From: a virus
Strand: one strand, 5' to 3'
Length of the DNA: 23,997 nt
Virus record (IMG/VR): IMGVR_UViG_3300035338_000008
Span: 1 to 23,997 of that record
Shown: positions 2,637-11,584 of the stretch, in pieces
Numbering within the stretch: position 1 is the stretch's first letter
Layout of the letters: the number at the start of each line of letters is the position of its first letter
Made by a program: the position numbers and the translations under genes
The notes under the pieces: model-generated
Database searches by the model: none
Seen by the model: only the letters and a program-made list of their open reading frames with translations
What the model was told of the DNA's origin: nothing

Positions 2637-4271
2637 ATGGAACCATTTGCTTTAGCCCTCGGAGATGGCAGTGTAGTCCTTAAAGAAACACTGGACAAGT
2701 TCGCCCTCAAATCAGATGAATTTGAATTTGATAAGGACATGTTTGACAAGAAGGTATCAAAGAAGGATATAGCAACCAAAGCAAACTCTGGAGAGGAATC
2801 TAAACAACTACGAGAAGGCCAGAACACTTATTCCTTTTACAACCTAATGAGGCCACCATACCCTCCAAAGATGCTCACATCCCTAAAAGAAATAAACACT
2901 TACCACTCTTCAGCAGTTAAAACCAAAGCAGTAGACACAGCAGGGCTAGGAGTTAAAATAGTACCAAGAGGGGACAAATCCAACCCGGAGAATAAAAAGA
3001 TACTAGAACAATTTCTCCAGAATTGTGATCCCACTCCAGAAGACCTTTTCACCCGAGCATGTCAAGATGAAGAAGAAGTTGGATGGCTGGCCATAGAGGT
3101 AATACGAACAGCAGGCCAGACCCTAGCTGAACCTCAAAGATTAGAACACATTCCTAGTCACACCATCAGGATCCACAAAGATGGTAACCGATTCATGCAC
3201 ACTTGGGATGGGATTAACCGGCGCTGGTTTAAACTCATAGGAGATTACCGTAGTGTTAAAGATCAGATGGATAAAGACATTGACAACACTGACGGGTCAG
3301 AAAAGGAATTTAACAGTTTACCAAAAGAAAAAAGAGCCAATGAATTAATTTATGATATTAATTATAGTTCAGGTACATCCTATTATGGAACCCCTGACAG
3401 TATACCTGCAATCCGTACAATGCTAGGGGATCAGGCTGCAACAAACTATAATCTTACTTTTTTCAAGAACTTCGCAACTCCACAGTATGCTGTGTATATC
3501 ACTGGTAATTTCAAAGACCAGCCTATTTTAGATGATGAGGGTAAACCAACTGGTAAATCAGTTTTACAGAAATCAATCGAGGATAGATTCAGAGAAGTGA
3601 AACAGAACCCCCATGGGAACATGGTGTTCATGATACCCAGTAAAGGAGGTTCAGACACCCAACCAGTCACAATCACATTTGAGAAATTATCTGTTGATAT
3701 TAAAGATAGTCACTTCAGATTATACCGTGATGCAAACCGGGATGAAGTAGTATCAGCTGAACGTGTGGATCCATACAGGGCCATGATAGTCCAGAAAGGA
3801 AACATGGGTGGAGGGAACACTGTATCCACCCAGACAGCTAAAAACTATAAATCAACCACTATTAAACCGAAACAACGAAGATTAGAAGCACTAATCAACA
3901 AATATGTGATTTGGAGAGATAAAGAGAAAGGCGGATTCGGTATAACTGATTGGGCTATCAAGTTTGAAGAGATTGACACTGACGATGAAAGCCATGAAAT
4001 GAACATGACACAGGCCCTATTCAATATGGGGACTATGAGTCCTTTACAAATTGCAGACCGCTTTGCAGACCGTTATGGCACAGTAATCCCCGAAGAATTA
4101 CGAGACCATCCCTCCCTGAATGCTTATTACATTAATGGCAACCCCCTTACTCTTGAACCACAAAACCAAGAGATGCCAGAAGAGGTAGCTAAAATCCTGG
4201 AAGATATTGCCAATAAACTAGATCCTGAACAATCACAGAACCATCCACTCAGGAGGCTATTCGGTGGATAA
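2637..4271 (+). CDS. Portal protein (PBSX/HK97-like)
   Basis: 544 aa after terL with motifs LEHIPSHTIR, YYGTPD..PA and NLTFFKNFATPQYAVYITG; RBS AGGAG. Confidence 0.9.
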   Translation: MEPFALALGDGSVVLKETLDKFALKSDEFEFDKDMFDKKVSKKDIATKANSGEESKQLREGQNTYSFYNLMRPPYPPKMLTSLKEINTYHSSAVKTKAVDTAGLGVKIVPRGDKSNPENKKILEQFLQNCDPTPEDLFTRACQDEEEVGWLAIEVIRTAGQTLAEPQRLEHIPSHTIRIHKDGNRFMHTWDGINRRWFKLIGDYRSVKDQMDKDIDNTDGSEKEFNSLPKEKRANELIYDINYSSGTSYYGTPDSIPAIRTMLGDQAATNYNLTFFKNFATPQYAVYITGNFKDQPILDDEGKPTGKSVLQKSIEDRFREVKQNPHGNMVFMIPSKGGSDTQPVTITFEKLSVDIKDSHFRLYRDANRDEVVSAERVDPYRAMIVQKGNMGGGNTVSTQTAKNYKSTTIKPKQRRLEALINKYVIWRDKEKGGFGITDWAIKFEEIDTDDESHEMNMTQALFNMGTMSPLQIADRFADRYGTVIPEELRDHPSLNAYYINGNPLTLEPQNQEMPEEVAKILEDIANKLDPEQSQNHPLRRLFGG

Positions 4272-5154
4272 TAAAAGTGCTGCCAGTCTCCTCAGAATGT
4301 CAGCAATGAAACTAAGAAACCTGGCATTTAACAATGTAGCCATCAAAGAAGTGAGCACAGATTTCCAAATAGCTGGAGCAAAGGAGTTCTGGCAGTTAAT
4401 TGACTCATTACTTGCTGAACATGTCACTATCTCAAAAGAACATGTTCTAGCCGCCAGTAAAAATACTGATCTTAATTTTGAATACCTCCGGCAGATCTAT
4501 CCTGACATTGATAACATTATTCAGGAAGCCGTACCCGATATTAGAACTTACACTGAGAAGTTTTACACAGCAGGTAAGACAGCTGGATTTAGTGATATGG
4601 GAGTTAAAGCTTTTGTTGGAGCTTCCGATACCAATGCAATGTACCACTTGACTAATTACAATTTTGAATTAATACGACAATTAACTGATGACCTGGCCGC
4701 AGGAGTAAGGCGGGAGGTCTGGCAGGGTGTGGCCCGGGACCGTGGTCTTAAGGAGATAGCTAAACGTATTGAGAAAGTCCCTGACCTTGTACCATTACAG
4801 AGAGGTAAACGGGTTTGGTCTATTGCTGAACGTGCAAAGCTCCAGGCACATACTGAGTCCACCAGGGCCAGACACCAGGGCCTATACATGTCATTCAAAC
4901 AGTACGATGTAACTCATTATGAATTGGTGAATACTCCATGGAAACGTTTATGTCCTGACTGTAAGGCCAAGGCGGCGAATAATCCTTATGAGATTGATGA
5001 TTTGACTGCTTGGGCTCCTATCCATGTCCTATGTCATTGTAGTAATATTGCTGCCAGCGATCCTGCTGAGAAGGCCAGTGACCCTGGTGAGTTCTTGAAT
5101 ATGGTGACTGGGCAGATGGAACAGGTTAATAAAAATCTGGTTTTTGCTATTTAG
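4264..5154 (+). CDS. Minor head protein (Mu gpF / SPP1 gp7-like)
   Basis: Follows the portal gene. It has RAKLQAHTESTRA, CPDC and a C-terminal PIHVLCHC motif (variant of HPxCRC). Confidence 0.85.
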   Translation: MDNKSAASLLRMSAMKLRNLAFNNVAIKEVSTDFQIAGAKEFWQLIDSLLAEHVTISKEHVLAASKNTDLNFEYLRQIYPDIDNIIQEAVPDIRTYTEKFYTAGKTAGFSDMGVKAFVGASDTNAMYHLTNYNFELIRQLTDDLAAGVRREVWQGVARDRGLKEIAKRIEKVPDLVPLQRGKRVWSIAERAKLQAHTESTRARHQGLYMSFKQYDVTHYELVNTPWKRLCPDCKAKAANNPYEIDDLTAWAPIHVLCHCSNIAASDPAEKASDPGEFLNMVTGQMEQVNKNLVFAI

Positions 5155-5161
5155 ATTCCTA

Positions 5162-5175
5162 TTTTTTTTGTTTTT
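5162..5175 (+). terminator. Oligo-T tract (archaeal-type terminator candidate, or tRNA leader)
   Basis: TTTTTTTTGTTTTT lies 7 nt after the minor head stop codon and immediately before the tRNA-like element. Confidence 0.4.
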
Positions 5176-5248
5176 GCCTGTGTAACTCAAGTAGATGAGT
5201 GCCGGATTTGTAACCCGGAAGGTGGGGCTACGAGTGCCTCCTCAGGCT
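5176..5248 (+). tRNA. Non-canonical tRNA-Thr (anticodon TGT)-like gene, no encoded CCA
   Basis: Hand-folded cloverleaf: acceptor GCCTGTG/CTCAGGC (6/7 paired), D-stem ACTC/GAGT, anticodon stem CCGGA/CCCGG (4/5) with loop TTTGTAA (TGT at 5209-5211), 5-nt variable loop AAGGT, T-stem GGGGC/GCCTC with loop TACGAGT, and discriminator T. Confidence 0.75.
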
Positions 5249-5269
5249 TTCAGAACTAACATTATTTAA

Positions 5270-5292
5270 ATTAATCTTAAATGGAGGTGAAT
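5270..5292 (+). repeat. 23-bp direct repeat, copy 1 (contains RBS GGAGGTGA)
   Basis: ATTAATCTTAAATGGAGGTGAAT, identical to 5473-5495. Confidence 0.95.
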
Positions 5293-5294
5293 CC

Positions 5295-5459
5295 ATGGAG
5301 GATAAAGAATTCTCAGAACTAATCAAAGAGTTAGCAAATAAATTACAACTAGCCAAAGGAGAACTAACCGGAGCCCAATTACTGATTTTTAAAGGAGTTC
5401 TCAAAGGTGGAGTAGATTTCGTGAATTATACTCTTAATATTGAAGAGTTTAAAAAATGA
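5295..5459 (+). CDS. Small 54-aa hypothetical protein (not in ORF track)
   Basis: Perfect RBS GGAGGTGA 4 nt before ATG. Translation: MEDKEFSELIKELANKLQLAKGELTGAQLLIFKGVLKGGVDFVNYTLNIEEFKK, with TGA at 5457-5459. Confidence 0.75.
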   Translation: MEDKEFSELIKELANKLQLAKGELTGAQLLIFKGVLKGGVDFVNYTLNIEEFKK

Positions 5460-5472
5460 TTTTCTAATTTTT

Positions 5473-5495
5473 ATTAATCTTAAATGGAGGTGAAT
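5473..5495 (+). repeat. 23-bp direct repeat, copy 2 (RBS of protease gene)
   Basis: ATTAATCTTAAATGGAGGTGAAT, identical to 5270-5292. Confidence 0.95.
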
Positions 5496-5500
5496 TGATT

Positions 5501-6979
5501 TTGACAAAGCAAAAAAGCCACAAAAGGATGACAACCCCTGGAAGCTACAGAGATGTAGAAAACAAGTTAAGGGGAGCAATCAATGAAAAATACAACTCAG
5601 GACCAGCCGGAAACAAAGTAAGCACATGGCCAGTAGACATAATCCCAGACCCTCCAATAACTGCTGGAGAAACAATTATCGAAAACTATGACATGAACAA
5701 ATACTTCAAAATGTCATTCGAATTTGATGAAGAAGGCAAAATAATATTAGGCGATGCTGTCGAAGTCACTCAAACATTAACGTATGATCCAGTAGAAAAA
5801 GGATTGTTCGTTACAAAAGACGATGTTAAACAGGAAGTAACTGGACCCGTAATGTTGCCAGGATGTGCAGACTGCGATTTTAAACGTGGCGAAAAAATCT
5901 TCAGTGAAGATGAAGTCGCTAAATTCTGTGAAGAATACGATAAATACAGGATAGCAGATGAAATGCACTTATTCGGGGCAACAGGAAACCAGATAGGAAC
6001 ATCAATCAAGAACTGGACTCTTAAGAGTGAAGAAACCTACACAAACGTTAAAGGGGAAAGTGTAACTCTCCCTAAAGGTACCTGGATGTCTACAGTTAAA
6101 ATCACTGATGACGAGGTCTGGCAGAAAATCGAAGATGGAACCTACAAAGGTTTCAGTGGAACTTACCTCCCTAGGGAGCATGCAACACAACTGATGGAAA
6201 AGATAACAGCTTCCAAAAGCATGAATCCATTGTTAGATTACTTAGAATCAGTTAAACGTACATTGATTAAAGATATTGATGACCCGGTTCCACCAATTGT
6301 TGCAATTGTTGACAATCCCTGTGTACCTAATGCTATTTTTACCAGTGTTAAAACCTGCCCCACATCAGAGAAGGCAGGCCGCAGTATAAGCGATTCCACA
6401 CTGACAACACTACAGAAAGCACACGACAAAGCCCAGAGTGCACTGGACAATGTTAAAAAATTACTTAAAAAAGCGGAAGGCGAAAGGCCTTCAGCAGATA
6501 AGGAGGTAGATGATATGGACGAAAAAGAATTAGCCAAATTAGTAGGCGATACTGTAGACAAAAAATTTGATGAAAAAGTTAAACCCATTTCTGAAAAAAT
6601 CGAGGCAATTGAAGAGAAATTGCCTGAAGCAGATAAAAAAACAGACCCTCCAGGCAAGAATACTCCTGCCACTGAGGCAATCAAATGCACTAAATGTGAC
6701 CATGAAATCAAAGGTGCAGCTAAATTCTGCCCAGAATGCGGAGACCAAATATTACAGGAAGGTGAAGAGCCAGCCGAGAAACTGGAAGACAATCCTGTGA
6801 TTAAAAGCATCCTGGACCAGCAGAAAAAAATTAGTGAAAAATTAGGGATTCCTGCAGAATCTCAGAAGATGAAAGGTCAAGATGATGATGAAGAGGGTAC
6901 AGGTTCTGCAACCAAATCAGATGATGATTTCTACTCTCAGGCTGGTCTGAAACGTAACGGCAGGCCTAAAGAAGAATAA
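5501..6979 (+). CDS. Prohead protease (XkdF-like) fused to scaffold
   Basis: Lies between the minor head and capsid genes. It has the motif pattern VTGPVMLPG..D...DEMH..KGTWMSTVKITDDEVWQKIEDGTYKGFS and a charged coiled-coil C-terminus. TTG 5501 is better spaced from the RBS than TTG 5495. Confidence 0.8.
   Translation: MTKQKSHKRMTTPGSYRDVENKLRGAINEKYNSGPAGNKVSTWPVDIIPDPPITAGETIIENYDMNKYFKMSFEFDEEGKIILGDAVEVTQTLTYDPVEKGLFVTKDDVKQEVTGPVMLPGCADCDFKRGEKIFSEDEVAKFCEEYDKYRIADEMHLFGATGNQIGTSIKNWTLKSEETYTNVKGESVTLPKGTWMSTVKITDDEVWQKIEDGTYKGFSGTYLPREHATQLMEKITASKSMNPLLDYLESVKRTLIKDIDDPVPPIVAIVDNPCVPNAIFTSVKTCPTSEKAGRSISDSTLTTLQKAHDKAQSALDNVKKLLKKAEGERPSADKEVDDMDEKELAKLVGDTVDKKFDEKVKPISEKIEAIEEKLPEADKKTDPPGKNTPATEAIKCTKCDHEIKGAAKFCPECGDQILQEGEEPAEKLEDNPVIKSILDQQKKISEKLGIPAESQKMKGQDDDEEGTGSATKSDDDFYSQAGLKRNGRPKEE
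6515..6979 (+). CDS. Nested in-frame scaffold protein (154 aa) from an internal start
   Basis: AAGGAGGT at 6500-6507 lies 7 nt before in-frame ATG 6515 (MDEKELAKLVGD...). Confidence 0.6.
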   Translation: MDEKELAKLVGDTVDKKFDEKVKPISEKIEAIEEKLPEADKKTDPPGKNTPATEAIKCTKCDHEIKGAAKFCPECGDQILQEGEEPAEKLEDNPVIKSILDQQKKISEKLGIPAESQKMKGQDDDEEGTGSATKSDDDFYSQAGLKRNGRPKEE

Positions 6980-6992
6980 GGAGGATGATAAG

Positions 6993-8045
6993 ATGGCAGT
7001 AGCATCAAACAAACTATACGATTTAATGATGAACAACGGTAGTTTTAAGATCGTCGATGTGGCTTCACTCGGCGATGGTAAACTACCTGTTGAGAAATTA
7101 GGTGCTTTTATCCGAGTTGTGAGGGAGAATAGTCCTGTTCTTGGTGAAGCTACCTATAAAAAAGTTAATGGCGATTCCTTGGCAATCAGCCGGGTGGACA
7201 TGGCCGATGGCATAGTAACACCTGGTCAGGACGCATCAGGTAACAAAAGAGTAGTTCCTGAAGCTGATGAGGCAGGAGCAGAGGTTAAAACTAACAGCCT
7301 AGTCCCCAAAGAGCTCATCGCTAAACTCAGGATTGACTATGAAACCCTAGAGGACAACCTGGAGCAGGATGCATTTGAAAATACGTTAATGGAGCTTTTC
7401 GGCGCAGCTGCAAAAGAAGACCTTGAAAGATACTTCATGTTTGCAGACACGGCCATAACTTGGAGTACTTCTAAAGTCAGTAAACTTCTATCGATCAATG
7501 ATGGATGGCTTAAAACTGCAGGTAACAAAATCTATGGTCTTGAATCTGCAAGTGGGGCCAACGATGAAGATTTCAATCCAGACCCTGAACAGGATATGTG
7601 GCCAATACCATTGTTCAAAGCATTATATAATGCAATTCCACGCAAATTCATAGCAGGAAAAATCAATAGGAACATGTACAGGCTATATGTTGATTCTGAT
7701 GTTGAAGAAGCTTACTCTGACATTGTTGCCGCTAGGCCCACAGTTGCAGGGGATAATGCTCTTCTTGGTAAAGATGTCCTAGCCTGGAAAGGTATTCCTG
7801 TTGTCGATATAGCTTCCTTTGAGGACACAACCTATACTAATGTTGTAGGTAAACCTGCAATGCTCACCAAACCCAAAAACATGTACTGGGGAACTAAAAG
7901 GGACATAATGGTCGAGAACGAGAAAGACATAGATTGGAGACAGCTTAAAAACGTATTATCAATGAGAGTTGATTGTACTTACGAAGATGAGGATGCAACC
8001 TCTGTTGCGTTCCTGAATAAAGCAAAACCAGCTGCATCTCCATAG
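6993..8045 (+). CDS. Major capsid protein (HK97 fold)
   Basis: 350 aa after the scaffold with RBS GGAGGA, IDYETLEDNLEQDAFENTLMELFGAAAKEDLE, and C-terminal RDIMVENEKDI..RVDC. Confidence 0.88.
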   Translation: MAVASNKLYDLMMNNGSFKIVDVASLGDGKLPVEKLGAFIRVVRENSPVLGEATYKKVNGDSLAISRVDMADGIVTPGQDASGNKRVVPEADEAGAEVKTNSLVPKELIAKLRIDYETLEDNLEQDAFENTLMELFGAAAKEDLERYFMFADTAITWSTSKVSKLLSINDGWLKTAGNKIYGLESASGANDEDFNPDPEQDMWPIPLFKALYNAIPRKFIAGKINRNMYRLYVDSDVEEAYSDIVAARPTVAGDNALLGKDVLAWKGIPVVDIASFEDTTYTNVVGKPAMLTKPKNMYWGTKRDIMVENEKDIDWRQLKNVLSMRVDCTYEDEDATSVAFLNKAKPAASP

Positions 8046-10189: not shown

Positions 10190-11584
10190 ATGAATTTAGA
10201 TACAACAATTCCCGGTCGAAGTGCTGAATTTGTTGAACCTGATGTCTCTGTGGCCCTAGGTTCAGCTGGAATCATAGCAGTTGTCGGGCTATTTGAAAAA
10301 GGAGATGAAAACACACCCTATTATGCCAGGAACGCGAATGAAGCCCTGGACATAATGGGTAAGGATCCAGCCTATCCCGGGAGTAAGATCATACCATTGA
10401 TCTTCAAACCAGACCCTGAGAATAACAATTACGGTGCAACCAGTGCGATACTCATCAATGCTGGGACACGGGCAAGAGCATCATGTATACTAGTAGACAC
10501 AACAACTCCAGACCCCGTAACAGTCATGACACTAAAAGTGAAGGCTGGAACCTGGGGTAACGATCTCACAGTGACAATAGCATCTGGTTCCATTGCAGGT
10601 AAAAAAGTAACAATCATGAACGGAACGGAAATACTGGAGACCTGGGATAACCTGGCAGATGCAACAGCAGTGTACAACAAACTTAAGAGCCATTCAAGCA
10701 TTATCGAGGAGATAACAGCTGGAGATTTAACTAAGACTCTTAAAGACGTTGCTGCAAGTCCATTTGCTGGGGGAAGTGAAACAGCAGAACCTTCTACCAG
10801 TGACCTTTCTGAAGCCCTGGTGGAGATCCAGGATGAATCTTTCGACATCCTAATTTTCACAGACCTACTGGATGAAAGCTACATCCCCAGTGTGGAACAA
10901 TACCTTCAGGACCGTTTCGAGGCCGATAACGCCAGTGGAACTATCCTTGCAATGGATAAAGATAACACAGTCAGCCAAGCCAGAACCCTAACCCTGGCAA
11001 ATGATAGTGTCTTCATATTAGGACTTGTCTATCAAACATTCATCATTGGCAACACTGAGCTTAACGAAGCAGAAACAGCAGCCAGATATGCCGGGTATGT
11101 GGCAGGGATGAATATCAGTGAAAGCCCAACCAATAAAGTAATCTCTGATGTCACTGGCCTGAATAAGAGTTTCAAAACTGGTTCAGCTGATGAATATGCC
11201 CTGGTAGATGCAGGGGTGACAATCTTCAAATTGAAAAACAGGAAAGACAACAAGTTCTGTGTAGTATCAGCAGTCACAACCAGCCAGGAAACAGATGACA
11301 GTGGGAAGAAACTCAACGAAATAGTCACAGCCAGGACCCTGTTATTTGTCACAAAGTACATGGATGTGTCCAACTGGCCAGGAGTAACACGGTCTATAAC
11401 TGCCCTCAGCGGCATAGCGAATCAGTTGAAACAGAACCTGATTGATGAAAAGATTGTACAGGACCTAACCATCACACTGGAAAAATCCACCTCTGATGAA
11501 CAGGTTCTGAACCTGGACATTGCAATAAAAGTCCAGGACGTGATTAAACACATCCATAAACGTGTTAAAAACATTGTAGGGTGA
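10190..11584 (+). CDS. Tail sheath protein (contractile tail)
   Basis: 464 aa with IAVVGLFEKG..NTPY, KAGTWGNDLTVTI, PFAGGS, AARYAGYVAG..ESPTNK and LVDAGVT. Confidence 0.9.
   Translation: MNLDTTIPGRSAEFVEPDVSVALGSAGIIAVVGLFEKGDENTPYYARNANEALDIMGKDPAYPGSKIIPLIFKPDPENNNYGATSAILINAGTRARASCILVDTTTPDPVTVMTLKVKAGTWGNDLTVTIASGSIAGKKVTIMNGTEILETWDNLADATAVYNKLKSHSSIIEEITAGDLTKTLKDVAASPFAGGSETAEPSTSDLSEALVEIQDESFDILIFTDLLDESYIPSVEQYLQDRFEADNASGTILAMDKDNTVSQARTLTLANDSVFILGLVYQTFIIGNTELNEAETAARYAGYVAGMNISESPTNKVISDVTGLNKSFKTGSADEYALVDAGVTIFKLKNRKDNKFCVVSAVTTSQETDDSGKKLNEIVTARTLLFVTKYMDVSNWPGVTRSITALSGIANQLKQNLIDEKIVQDLTITLEKSTSDEQVLNLDIAIKVQDVIKHIHKRVKNIVG

Follow-up and report, generated by a model that had tools for sequence, protein, structure and literature searches.

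Bacteriophages and haloarchaeal viruses are well known to carry tRNA genes of their own; for viruses of Methanobacteriales, our literature search returned no such report. An initial annotation described a tRNA-like element hidden among the head genes of an IMG/VR viral contig (IMGVR_UViG_3300035338_000008, estimated 26% complete), which was analyzed here over a stretch of 23,997 nt, hereafter the window. The element departs from several near-universal tRNA positions. The locus raises the question of whether it is a genuine tRNA gene kept by selection and what, with so unusual a core, it could do for the virus.

Identification of a viral tRNA-Thr(UGU) gene

Infernal search of the 24-kb window gave a single Rfam match. 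This match, to RF00005, is full length (model positions 1–71 of 71), occupies exactly positions 5176–5248 of the plus strand and scores 43.3 bits (E 2.6e-6; the gathering score is 29 bits). ARAGORN called nothing in the window at default settings. At 90% thresholds (-ps90) it reported a 73-nt tRNA-Thr(tgt) with coordinates 5176–5248, and the default miss is therefore a threshold effect rather than absence of a tRNA. The expectation that standard scanners would score the element poorly thus held for default ARAGORN, while Infernal passes it comfortably. Since default ARAGORN misses such genes, metagenome surveys may underestimate the number of viral tRNAs.

The predicted cloverleaf has stems of 7, 4, 5 and 5 bp, an 8-nt D-loop (AAGUAGAU, with A18 and no GG), a 7-nt anticodon loop (UUUGUAA), a 5-nt variable loop, the T-loop UACGAGU and the discriminator U73; CCA is not encoded. 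Its spacing is perfect, as claimed initially; its pairing is not, for two non-pairs flagged by Infernal had been missed, one in the acceptor stem (U6.U67) and one at the base of the anticodon stem (A31.C39). Reading of the sequence against the Infernal alignment confirmed each nucleotide that had been listed as kept or changed. Retained are U8, A14, G19, U33, A37, U54, C56, A58 and the anticodon UGU; altered are A18, U21, A15-U48, C53-G61 and A55. Seven of the 12 most conserved tRNA nucleotides (U8, A14, G18, G19, A21, U33, G53, T54, Psi55, C56, A58 and C61; PMC10424219) are kept in the window tRNA (U8, A14, G19, U33, U54, C56, A58) and five differ (A18, U21, C53, A55, G61). Every one of the 37 tRNAs of one Methanobacterium genome has the D-loop GG and the G53-U54-U55-C56-R57-A58..C61 motif, so the elbow departures of the window tRNA are real outliers. 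Its 43 bits lie close to the bottom of the host tRNA range of 42.9–74 bits.

The pairs G1-C72, C2-G71 and, in archaea, C3-G70 and the discriminator U73 are threonine identity elements, as established in E. coli and Haloferax ThrRS studies. All are present in the window tRNA together with an NGU anticodon, and host tRNA-Thr(UGU) has the same 1–3/70–72 pairs and U73. The element lies in a viral head/tail module and has viral homologs, and no identical cellular gene was found in the searches described below. Judged by the Rfam and ARAGORN -ps90 calls, by homologs at the same site and by covariation, we conclude that 5176–5248 is a genuine virus-encoded tRNA-Thr(UGU) gene, neither a chance resemblance nor a host att remnant. 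The window copy, hereafter the derived allele, is an unusual variant of a known viral gene type, with the "elbow" rebuilt and all but two stem pairs intact.

Genomic context and host of the virus

The window contains genes for small terminase (571–1077), large terminase (1043–2608), portal (2637–4271), a Mu-F-like minor head protein (4264–5154, plus strand; PF04233, E 7.9e-9; phrog_115), an XkdF-type prohead protease/scaffold protein with a zinc ribbon (5495–6979, plus strand; PF14550, E 8.8e-19), major capsid protein (6993–8045) and tail sheath (10190–11584). The tRNA starts 21 nt after the Mu-F stop codon, and the protease gene is the first large gene 3′ of it, in agreement with the original placement between minor head and protease genes. 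A 54-aa ORF (5295–5459, plus strand) separates the tRNA from the protease gene and has no Pfam or PHROG match. According to gene tables and alignments, it is found 3′ of the tRNA in the window and in L006-type viruses and is absent from the tRNA loci of L031 and L066 (these relatives are described below).

Two further features of this region were observed. The L006-type viruses have an extra 54-aa ORF between Mu-F and the tRNA (L006:3888–4098, L079:1502–1666), their tRNA sitting between two small ORFs; L031 and L066 have neither. In the window, an exact 23-bp repeat, ATTAATCTTAAATGGAGGTGAAT, is present at 5270–5292, before the 54-aa ORF, and at 5473–5495, before the protease gene.

Upstream of the tRNA, positions 5149–5175 (plus strand) form an AT-rich stretch. 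The sequence here contains a TATA-like box, TATTTAGA, about 27 nt before the tRNA and overlapping the Mu-F stop codon, followed by T8 and T5 runs. The box and the T-runs may serve as an archaeal promoter, as an oligo-T terminator of the upstream genes, or as both. The same arrangement is present 5′ of the tRNA in L066, L031 and G001, the last being a complete virus genome unrelated to the window. TATA boxes of host tRNA genes sit further upstream than the viral box (at about −27 to −42 in the clearest cases), and for this reason the promoter remains a putative one. Downstream, the 46-nt spacer to the next gene (5249–5294, plus strand) contains the ribosome-binding motif AATGGAGGTGAAT; its longest T-run is 3, and up to about position 5278 it is common with G001.

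The best matches of the capsid protein among known viruses, at about 33% identity, are Methanothermobacter psiM100, Methanobacterium Drs3 and psiM2, and homologs within Methanobacterium genomes reach 85% and 77% identity. On the strength of these matches the host is assigned to Methanobacterium, and the window virus is a tailed virus of this genus. The archaeal affiliation supposed in the initial annotation is therefore borne out.

A tRNA family at the Mu-F/protease gap

Relatives of the window virus, gathered by DNA patterns and by searches with its Mu-F and capsid proteins, fall into three classes at the Mu-F/protease gap. The first has no tRNA and comprises L002–L005 (87% Mu-F identity), L075, and L033, a provirus in Methanobacterium sp. 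GCA_038562635.1. The second carries a canonical tRNA-Thr(UGU), in which G53-C61, the GG of the D-loop and a T-loop of the form UUCAAxU are all present. Members of this class are L066 (55 bits), the L006-type, which scores 53.1 bits and has the same sequence in three contigs, and L031 (60.1 bits), a provirus within a 2.9-Mb Methanobacterium contig, G084. The L006 tRNA, the only canonical sister so run, was called by ARAGORN at default. The derived allele makes up the third class. Flanks of the tRNA can be aligned across all three classes, and the gene is therefore a gain/loss polymorphism in one intergenic region. There are five distinct family sequences, two of which represent the derived allele. 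From the loci compared, these genes form a small family that is scattered among Methanobacterium tailed viruses and proviruses and is located at the Mu-F/prohead-protease gap. No earlier description of such a Methanobacterium-virus tRNA-Thr family was found in a literature search.

The canonical sisters share with the window tRNA the site, the flanks, the anticodon, A31.C39 and U73, and their acceptor stem is identical at positions 1–6 and 68–73. They keep G18-G19, U54-U55-C56, G53-C61 and A21 and score 53–60 bits, whereas the window tRNA has A18, A55, U21, C53-G61, A10-U25 and U6.U67. Core changes beyond those of the window allele are tolerated in the family. At the first position of the D-loop (Infernal position 14), where A is near-universal, the tRNAs at L006:4098–4172 and L066:737–811 carry C.

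The tRNA is dispensable, being absent from several close relatives and from three isolated viruses of Methanobacteriales (Drs3, psiM2 and psiM100, three of three checked). One role initially offered for the element was punctuation of the late mRNA through cleavage by RNase P and tRNase Z. Close relatives have the same operon without the tRNA, which makes an obligatory role of this kind unlikely. At this one site, viruses without a tRNA, viruses whose tRNA has a canonical elbow and viruses whose tRNA has a remodelled elbow form a natural series. Such a series is useful for asking what one extra tRNA does for an archaeal virus whose host already uses ACA as a common codon, and to what extent the "invariant" elbow tolerates replacement as long as selection on secondary structure persists.

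Selection on the cloverleaf

Five distinct family sequences (alignment A2) were scored against the cloverleaf and three tertiary pairs. Paired cells amounted to 92.5%, compared to 29–45% when the partners were slid by 1–3 columns, and double-sided (compensatory) changes were present in 9 of the 24 pairs. The observed covariation score was reached by none of 500 shuffles, which for five related sequences is an indication and not a probability. An independent RNAalifold run recovered the cloverleaf with 8 compensated pairs. The 7/4/5/5-bp stems are thus maintained by covariation, the window copy having its two non-pairs. The Levitt pair 15-48 covaries as well, being G-C in L031 and A-U in the other four members. 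Stem-breaking substitutions at homologous loci had been named beforehand as a sign against the element; the alignment of such loci revealed stem-keeping changes instead.

Changes in the window lineage were polarised by the other family members and the host. Two pairs were swapped in this lineage, G10-C25 to A-U and G53-C61 to C-G; G18, A21 and U55 were lost, and the sole broken pair is due to A67 having become U (U6.U67). In a simulation with 5–9 unconstrained stem substitutions, at least two double-changed positions that still pair, together with at most one broken pair, occurred with P ~0.002 or less. We conclude from the derived 53/61 and 10/25 swaps and from covariation at 15/48 that the paired changes in the window tRNA reflect selection on structure, as had been suspected.

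The window cloverleaf has an energy of −23.4 kcal/mol, which exceeds its minimum free energy by 2.5; for L031, L006 and L066 the corresponding gap is 1.9–2.3. Folding of the single sequence gave no significant result (z = −1.59) and at minimum energy produced an alternative T-arm. Single-sequence energy is uninformative for tRNAs, and the comparative evidence is decisive here.

Persistence and apparent transfer of the derived allele

The 73 nt of the window tRNA are present without change in four other assemblies. One of these is L106. Over 1.8 kb it shows 57 mismatches and 2 gaps relative to the window, its DNA around the tRNA being 96.5% identical (3.5% different), yet its tRNA matches at 73 of 73 positions.

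G001, a virus whose genome of 39.6 kb is complete and has terminal repeats, carries a second form of the derived allele. Its tRNA is identical to the window's at 71 of 73 positions, the only differences being in the T-loop at 55 (G for A) and 57 (A for G). Protein-level similarity between the two viruses is confined to large terminase fragments, and the sole blastn match joins window positions 5171–5278 to 5656–5758 of G001, with 88.9% identity over 108 nt. Within this match the tRNA part is 97% identical, and the common 3′ flank includes the window-type ribosome-binding region. The G001 tRNA lies behind a proteasome/HslV-like peptidase gene and just ahead of head-assembly genes; at the corresponding site of G001's relatives (59% protein identity) there is no tRNA. 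This pattern suggests that a cassette some 110 nt long has moved horizontally between the two viruses. The position of the G001 tRNA next to the peptidase gene suggests an insertion hot spot in the head module.

The peptidase gene directly 5′ of the G001 tRNA (L010:5087–5650) matches PF00227 with E 2e-6. A diverged copy of ATTAATCTTAAATGGAGGTGAAT is present 3′ of the G001 tRNA, and the ORF behind that copy is only four codons long.

An anticodon-stem signature of the viral family

All five viral members carry A31.C39; in the 37 tRNAs of a Methanobacterium genome, G003, the 31-39 pair is Watson-Crick without exception. U32 is likewise present in all five, while host tRNA-Thr(UGU) has C32 and A31-U39. 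The other four anticodon-stem pairs covary among family members and A31.C39 is fixed. Because the mismatch is kept while neighbouring pairs change, it is likely to be selected. The first six bases of the anticodon loop, UUUGUA, are also invariant in the five members. The family thus differs from the host isoacceptor consistently in the anticodon stem-loop, a sequence feature of defence-evading tRNAs.

Possible functions of the viral tRNA

We put the probability at about 60% that the gene produces a working tRNA-Thr whose benefit is robust ACA decoding in late infection. For its expression, processing, charging and selective benefit we infer the following course. Transcription of the tRNA would immediately precede that of the late protease and capsid genes or be shared with it. 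The ends of the tRNA would be trimmed by RNase P and tRNase Z of the host, and a host enzyme would add CCA; the window, G001 and G002 yielded no CCA-adding enzyme (PF01909), one being reported in another Methanobacterium virus (PMC9796341). Host ThrRS would charge the tRNA via the retained G1-C72, C2-G71, C3-G70 and U73, and the charged tRNA would read ACA (and ACG) during late infection. The virus would thereby have a threonine tRNA that is still usable when host tRNA-Thr(UGU) is depleted or attacked. We consider this benefit more probable than codon compensation, because ACA is not rare in the host and because the family differs from the host isoacceptor by A31.C39/U32.

Codon compensation was rejected as the main driver. 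ACA accounts for 0.40 of threonine codons in the window and 0.41 in a Methanobacterium sample, i.e. it is already a common host codon, and for 28 per 1000 codons in the virus against 22 in the sample, which is an imperfect proxy (160 kb of Methanobacterium genome with 33% G+C, compared to 41% in the virus). The proposal of the initial annotation that the tRNA supplies ACA decoding for threonine-rich virion proteins is therefore not supported.

Several features of the window copy count against full activity as an adaptor. A18 together with A55 (G55 in G001) removes the 18-55 elbow contact. The elbow is used by the ribosome and the CCA enzyme as well as by RNase P and tRNase Z, and function could therefore be impaired. 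U6.U67 weakens the acceptor stem beside the identity pairs. The 53-61 pair, reversed here as C53-G61, is among the most conserved in tRNAs (PMC10424219). The low bit score, the small number of distinct sequences and the lack of the gene in relatives likewise weigh against the preferred reading.

Unlikely, in our estimate, is that the product is a tRNA-shaped RNA that no longer acts as an adaptor, but as a 5′-terminal handle by which RNase P or tRNase Z cuts the late protease/capsid mRNA, or as a decoy for a host tRNA-binding factor. Passage through the ribosome would then never be needed and the elbow would be free to drift. The elbow is indeed changed, position 55 being A in one copy and G in the other, with the acceptor and T stems, the substrate of RNase P and tRNase Z, kept. 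The tRNA lies just ahead of scaffold/capsid genes in both unrelated viruses, and since no T-run separates the window tRNA from the next ribosome-binding site, co-transcription with the late genes is plausible. However, T5–T8 runs are found 3′ of the tRNA in L066, L031 and G001, so read-through is not a conserved design, and the same operon works without the tRNA in close relatives. Moreover, the threonine identity pairs and U73 are intact, UUUGUA is kept in all five members and the anticodon stem covaries, although a cleavage handle needs neither anticodon loop nor stem.

We also regard as rather improbable a decaying pseudo-tRNA, i.e. a once-functional viral tRNA-Thr that has lost its elbow and one acceptor pair and persists as a neutral passenger. 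Loss of G18, A21, U55 and the G53-C61 orientation, the U6.U67 mismatch, rejection by default ARAGORN and dispensability of the gene in relatives would all fit such decay. Yet the stem changes of the lineage are compensated (10-25, 53-61; P ~0.002 under free drift) and cloverleaf stability equals that of the canonical relatives. In addition, the sequence has stayed the same next to DNA that has diverged by 3.5%, and its identity in an unrelated virus is 97% against 88.9% for the whole 108-nt match. The working tRNA-Thr remains the preferred reading.

Relation to host tRNA genes

The last alternative concerns origin. No BLAST match to the window tRNA was obtained among 201 Methanobacteriaceae genomes, and in a search of 314 genomes the family pattern matched only the G084 provirus and an unrelated coding motif. 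A phage collection contained no DNA match to the element. The window tRNA is ~75–78% identical to host tRNA-Thr(UGU). In G084, the cell's own tRNA-Thr(UGU), identical to that of G003, is ~75% identical to the provirus copy. The near-identity to a host tRNA that would have marked an ordinary captured gene was thus not encountered in these searches. It is highly improbable that the gene was captured recently from a host or that it is an attP/att remnant left by integration into a host tRNA-Thr gene. Many archaeal proviruses do integrate into tRNA genes (PMC8651126), and the tRNA-Thr(CGU) of one Methanobacterium genome has the same acceptor stem. However, the window tRNA is full length rather than a 3′ fragment and lies within the head gene module, the window and the complete G001 genome lack a tyrosine integrase (PF00589), the cellular genomes searched gave no match, and identity between the provirus copy and the tRNA-Thr(UGU) of its host is only ~75%.

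Several candidates from the pattern searches were discarded. Scanning 185,579 species genomes for the exact pattern yielded no tRNA, only a single chance match in a Clostridia ORF, and 8 of 10 metagenome pattern matches were coding-sequence coincidences. A conserved stretch of ~75 nt in several Methanobacteriaceae genomes and metagenome contigs (GCCTGTCTTCTTA...TTCCAGGCT; L064, L065, L071, L073, L094–L097) fits the tRNA pattern; the four metagenome copies scanned (L064, L065, L071, L073) gave no Rfam tRNA score, and the stretch appears to be coding sequence.

The sole tRNA-Thr(CGU) of Methanobacterium sp. GCA_038562635.1 (L045:82–153; G003:C4:763081–763152) has the acceptor stem and discriminator of the viral family (GCCUGUG...CACAGGC-U) and the T-loop UUCGAGU, one base from UACGAGU. 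By this resemblance it may represent the cellular source lineage of the viral family, or may itself be a mobile-element gene. The tRNA-Thr(CGU) of G084 is 88% identical to the tRNA-Thr(UGU) of the same genome. G003 also contains three tRNA-His(GUG) copies with a 355-nt period, two of them identical (L040:761–1543; G003:C4:2231660–2232442), a tandem duplication beside a tRNA cluster.

Comparison with known systems

Tailed phages and haloarchaeal viruses may carry many tRNAs, 36 in the case of the haloarchaeal tailed virus HGTV-1 (PMC8651126). Like them, the tRNA described here is full length, sporadic among relatives, distinct from the host isoacceptor and without encoded CCA. It differs in having a methanogen as host, in being a lone tRNA whose place in the head module is fixed and, for this allele, in carrying changes at five of the tRNA nucleotides that are most conserved. 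Mitochondrial tRNA punctuation and mascRNA-type 3′ ends resemble our locus in that a tRNA shape lies between coding regions of the same strand and cleavage would separate the transcripts. Such elements need no anticodon or identity set, whereas the window family conserves both, and, unlike these processing signals, the element can be missing entirely from relatives of the window virus.

To our knowledge, the known defence-evading phage tRNAs are all bacterial. Mycobacteriophage tRNAs escape or replace host tRNAs cut by VapC (PMC10264068), T5 tRNA-Lys is a phage tRNA set against the defence nuclease of PARIS (PMC11464382), and phage tRNA-Tyr is linked to retron effectors (PMC11555353). In these cases phage tRNAs that duplicate a host isoacceptor with differences in the anticodon loop have been tied to evasion of anticodon nucleases and of further defences that cut tRNAs (PMC10264068, PMC11464382, PMC11555353). 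The window tRNA likewise duplicates a host isoacceptor and has U32 for C32 and A31.C39 for A31-U39; unlike in the phage cases, no nuclease, cleavage site or defence system was found here, and no tRNA-directed nuclease was identified in any host. Its elbow remodelling has no counterpart in the reports on defence-evading phage tRNAs.

By analogy only, the A31.C39/U32 signature and the rebuilt elbow fit a counter-defence idea. Tentatively, and with rather low confidence, we suggest that both (the elbow with A18, R55, C53-G61 and no G15) could be adaptations that hide a charged, decoding-competent tRNA-Thr from a tRNA-directed nuclease of Methanobacterium, or from host enzymes that read the elbow or core. 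The advantage of hiding would then account for transfer of the cassette between two unrelated viruses. If true, this would be the first archaeal counterpart of the defence-evading phage tRNAs, and a case in nature of a tRNA that works although the 18-55 contact is missing and the 53-61 pair is reversed.
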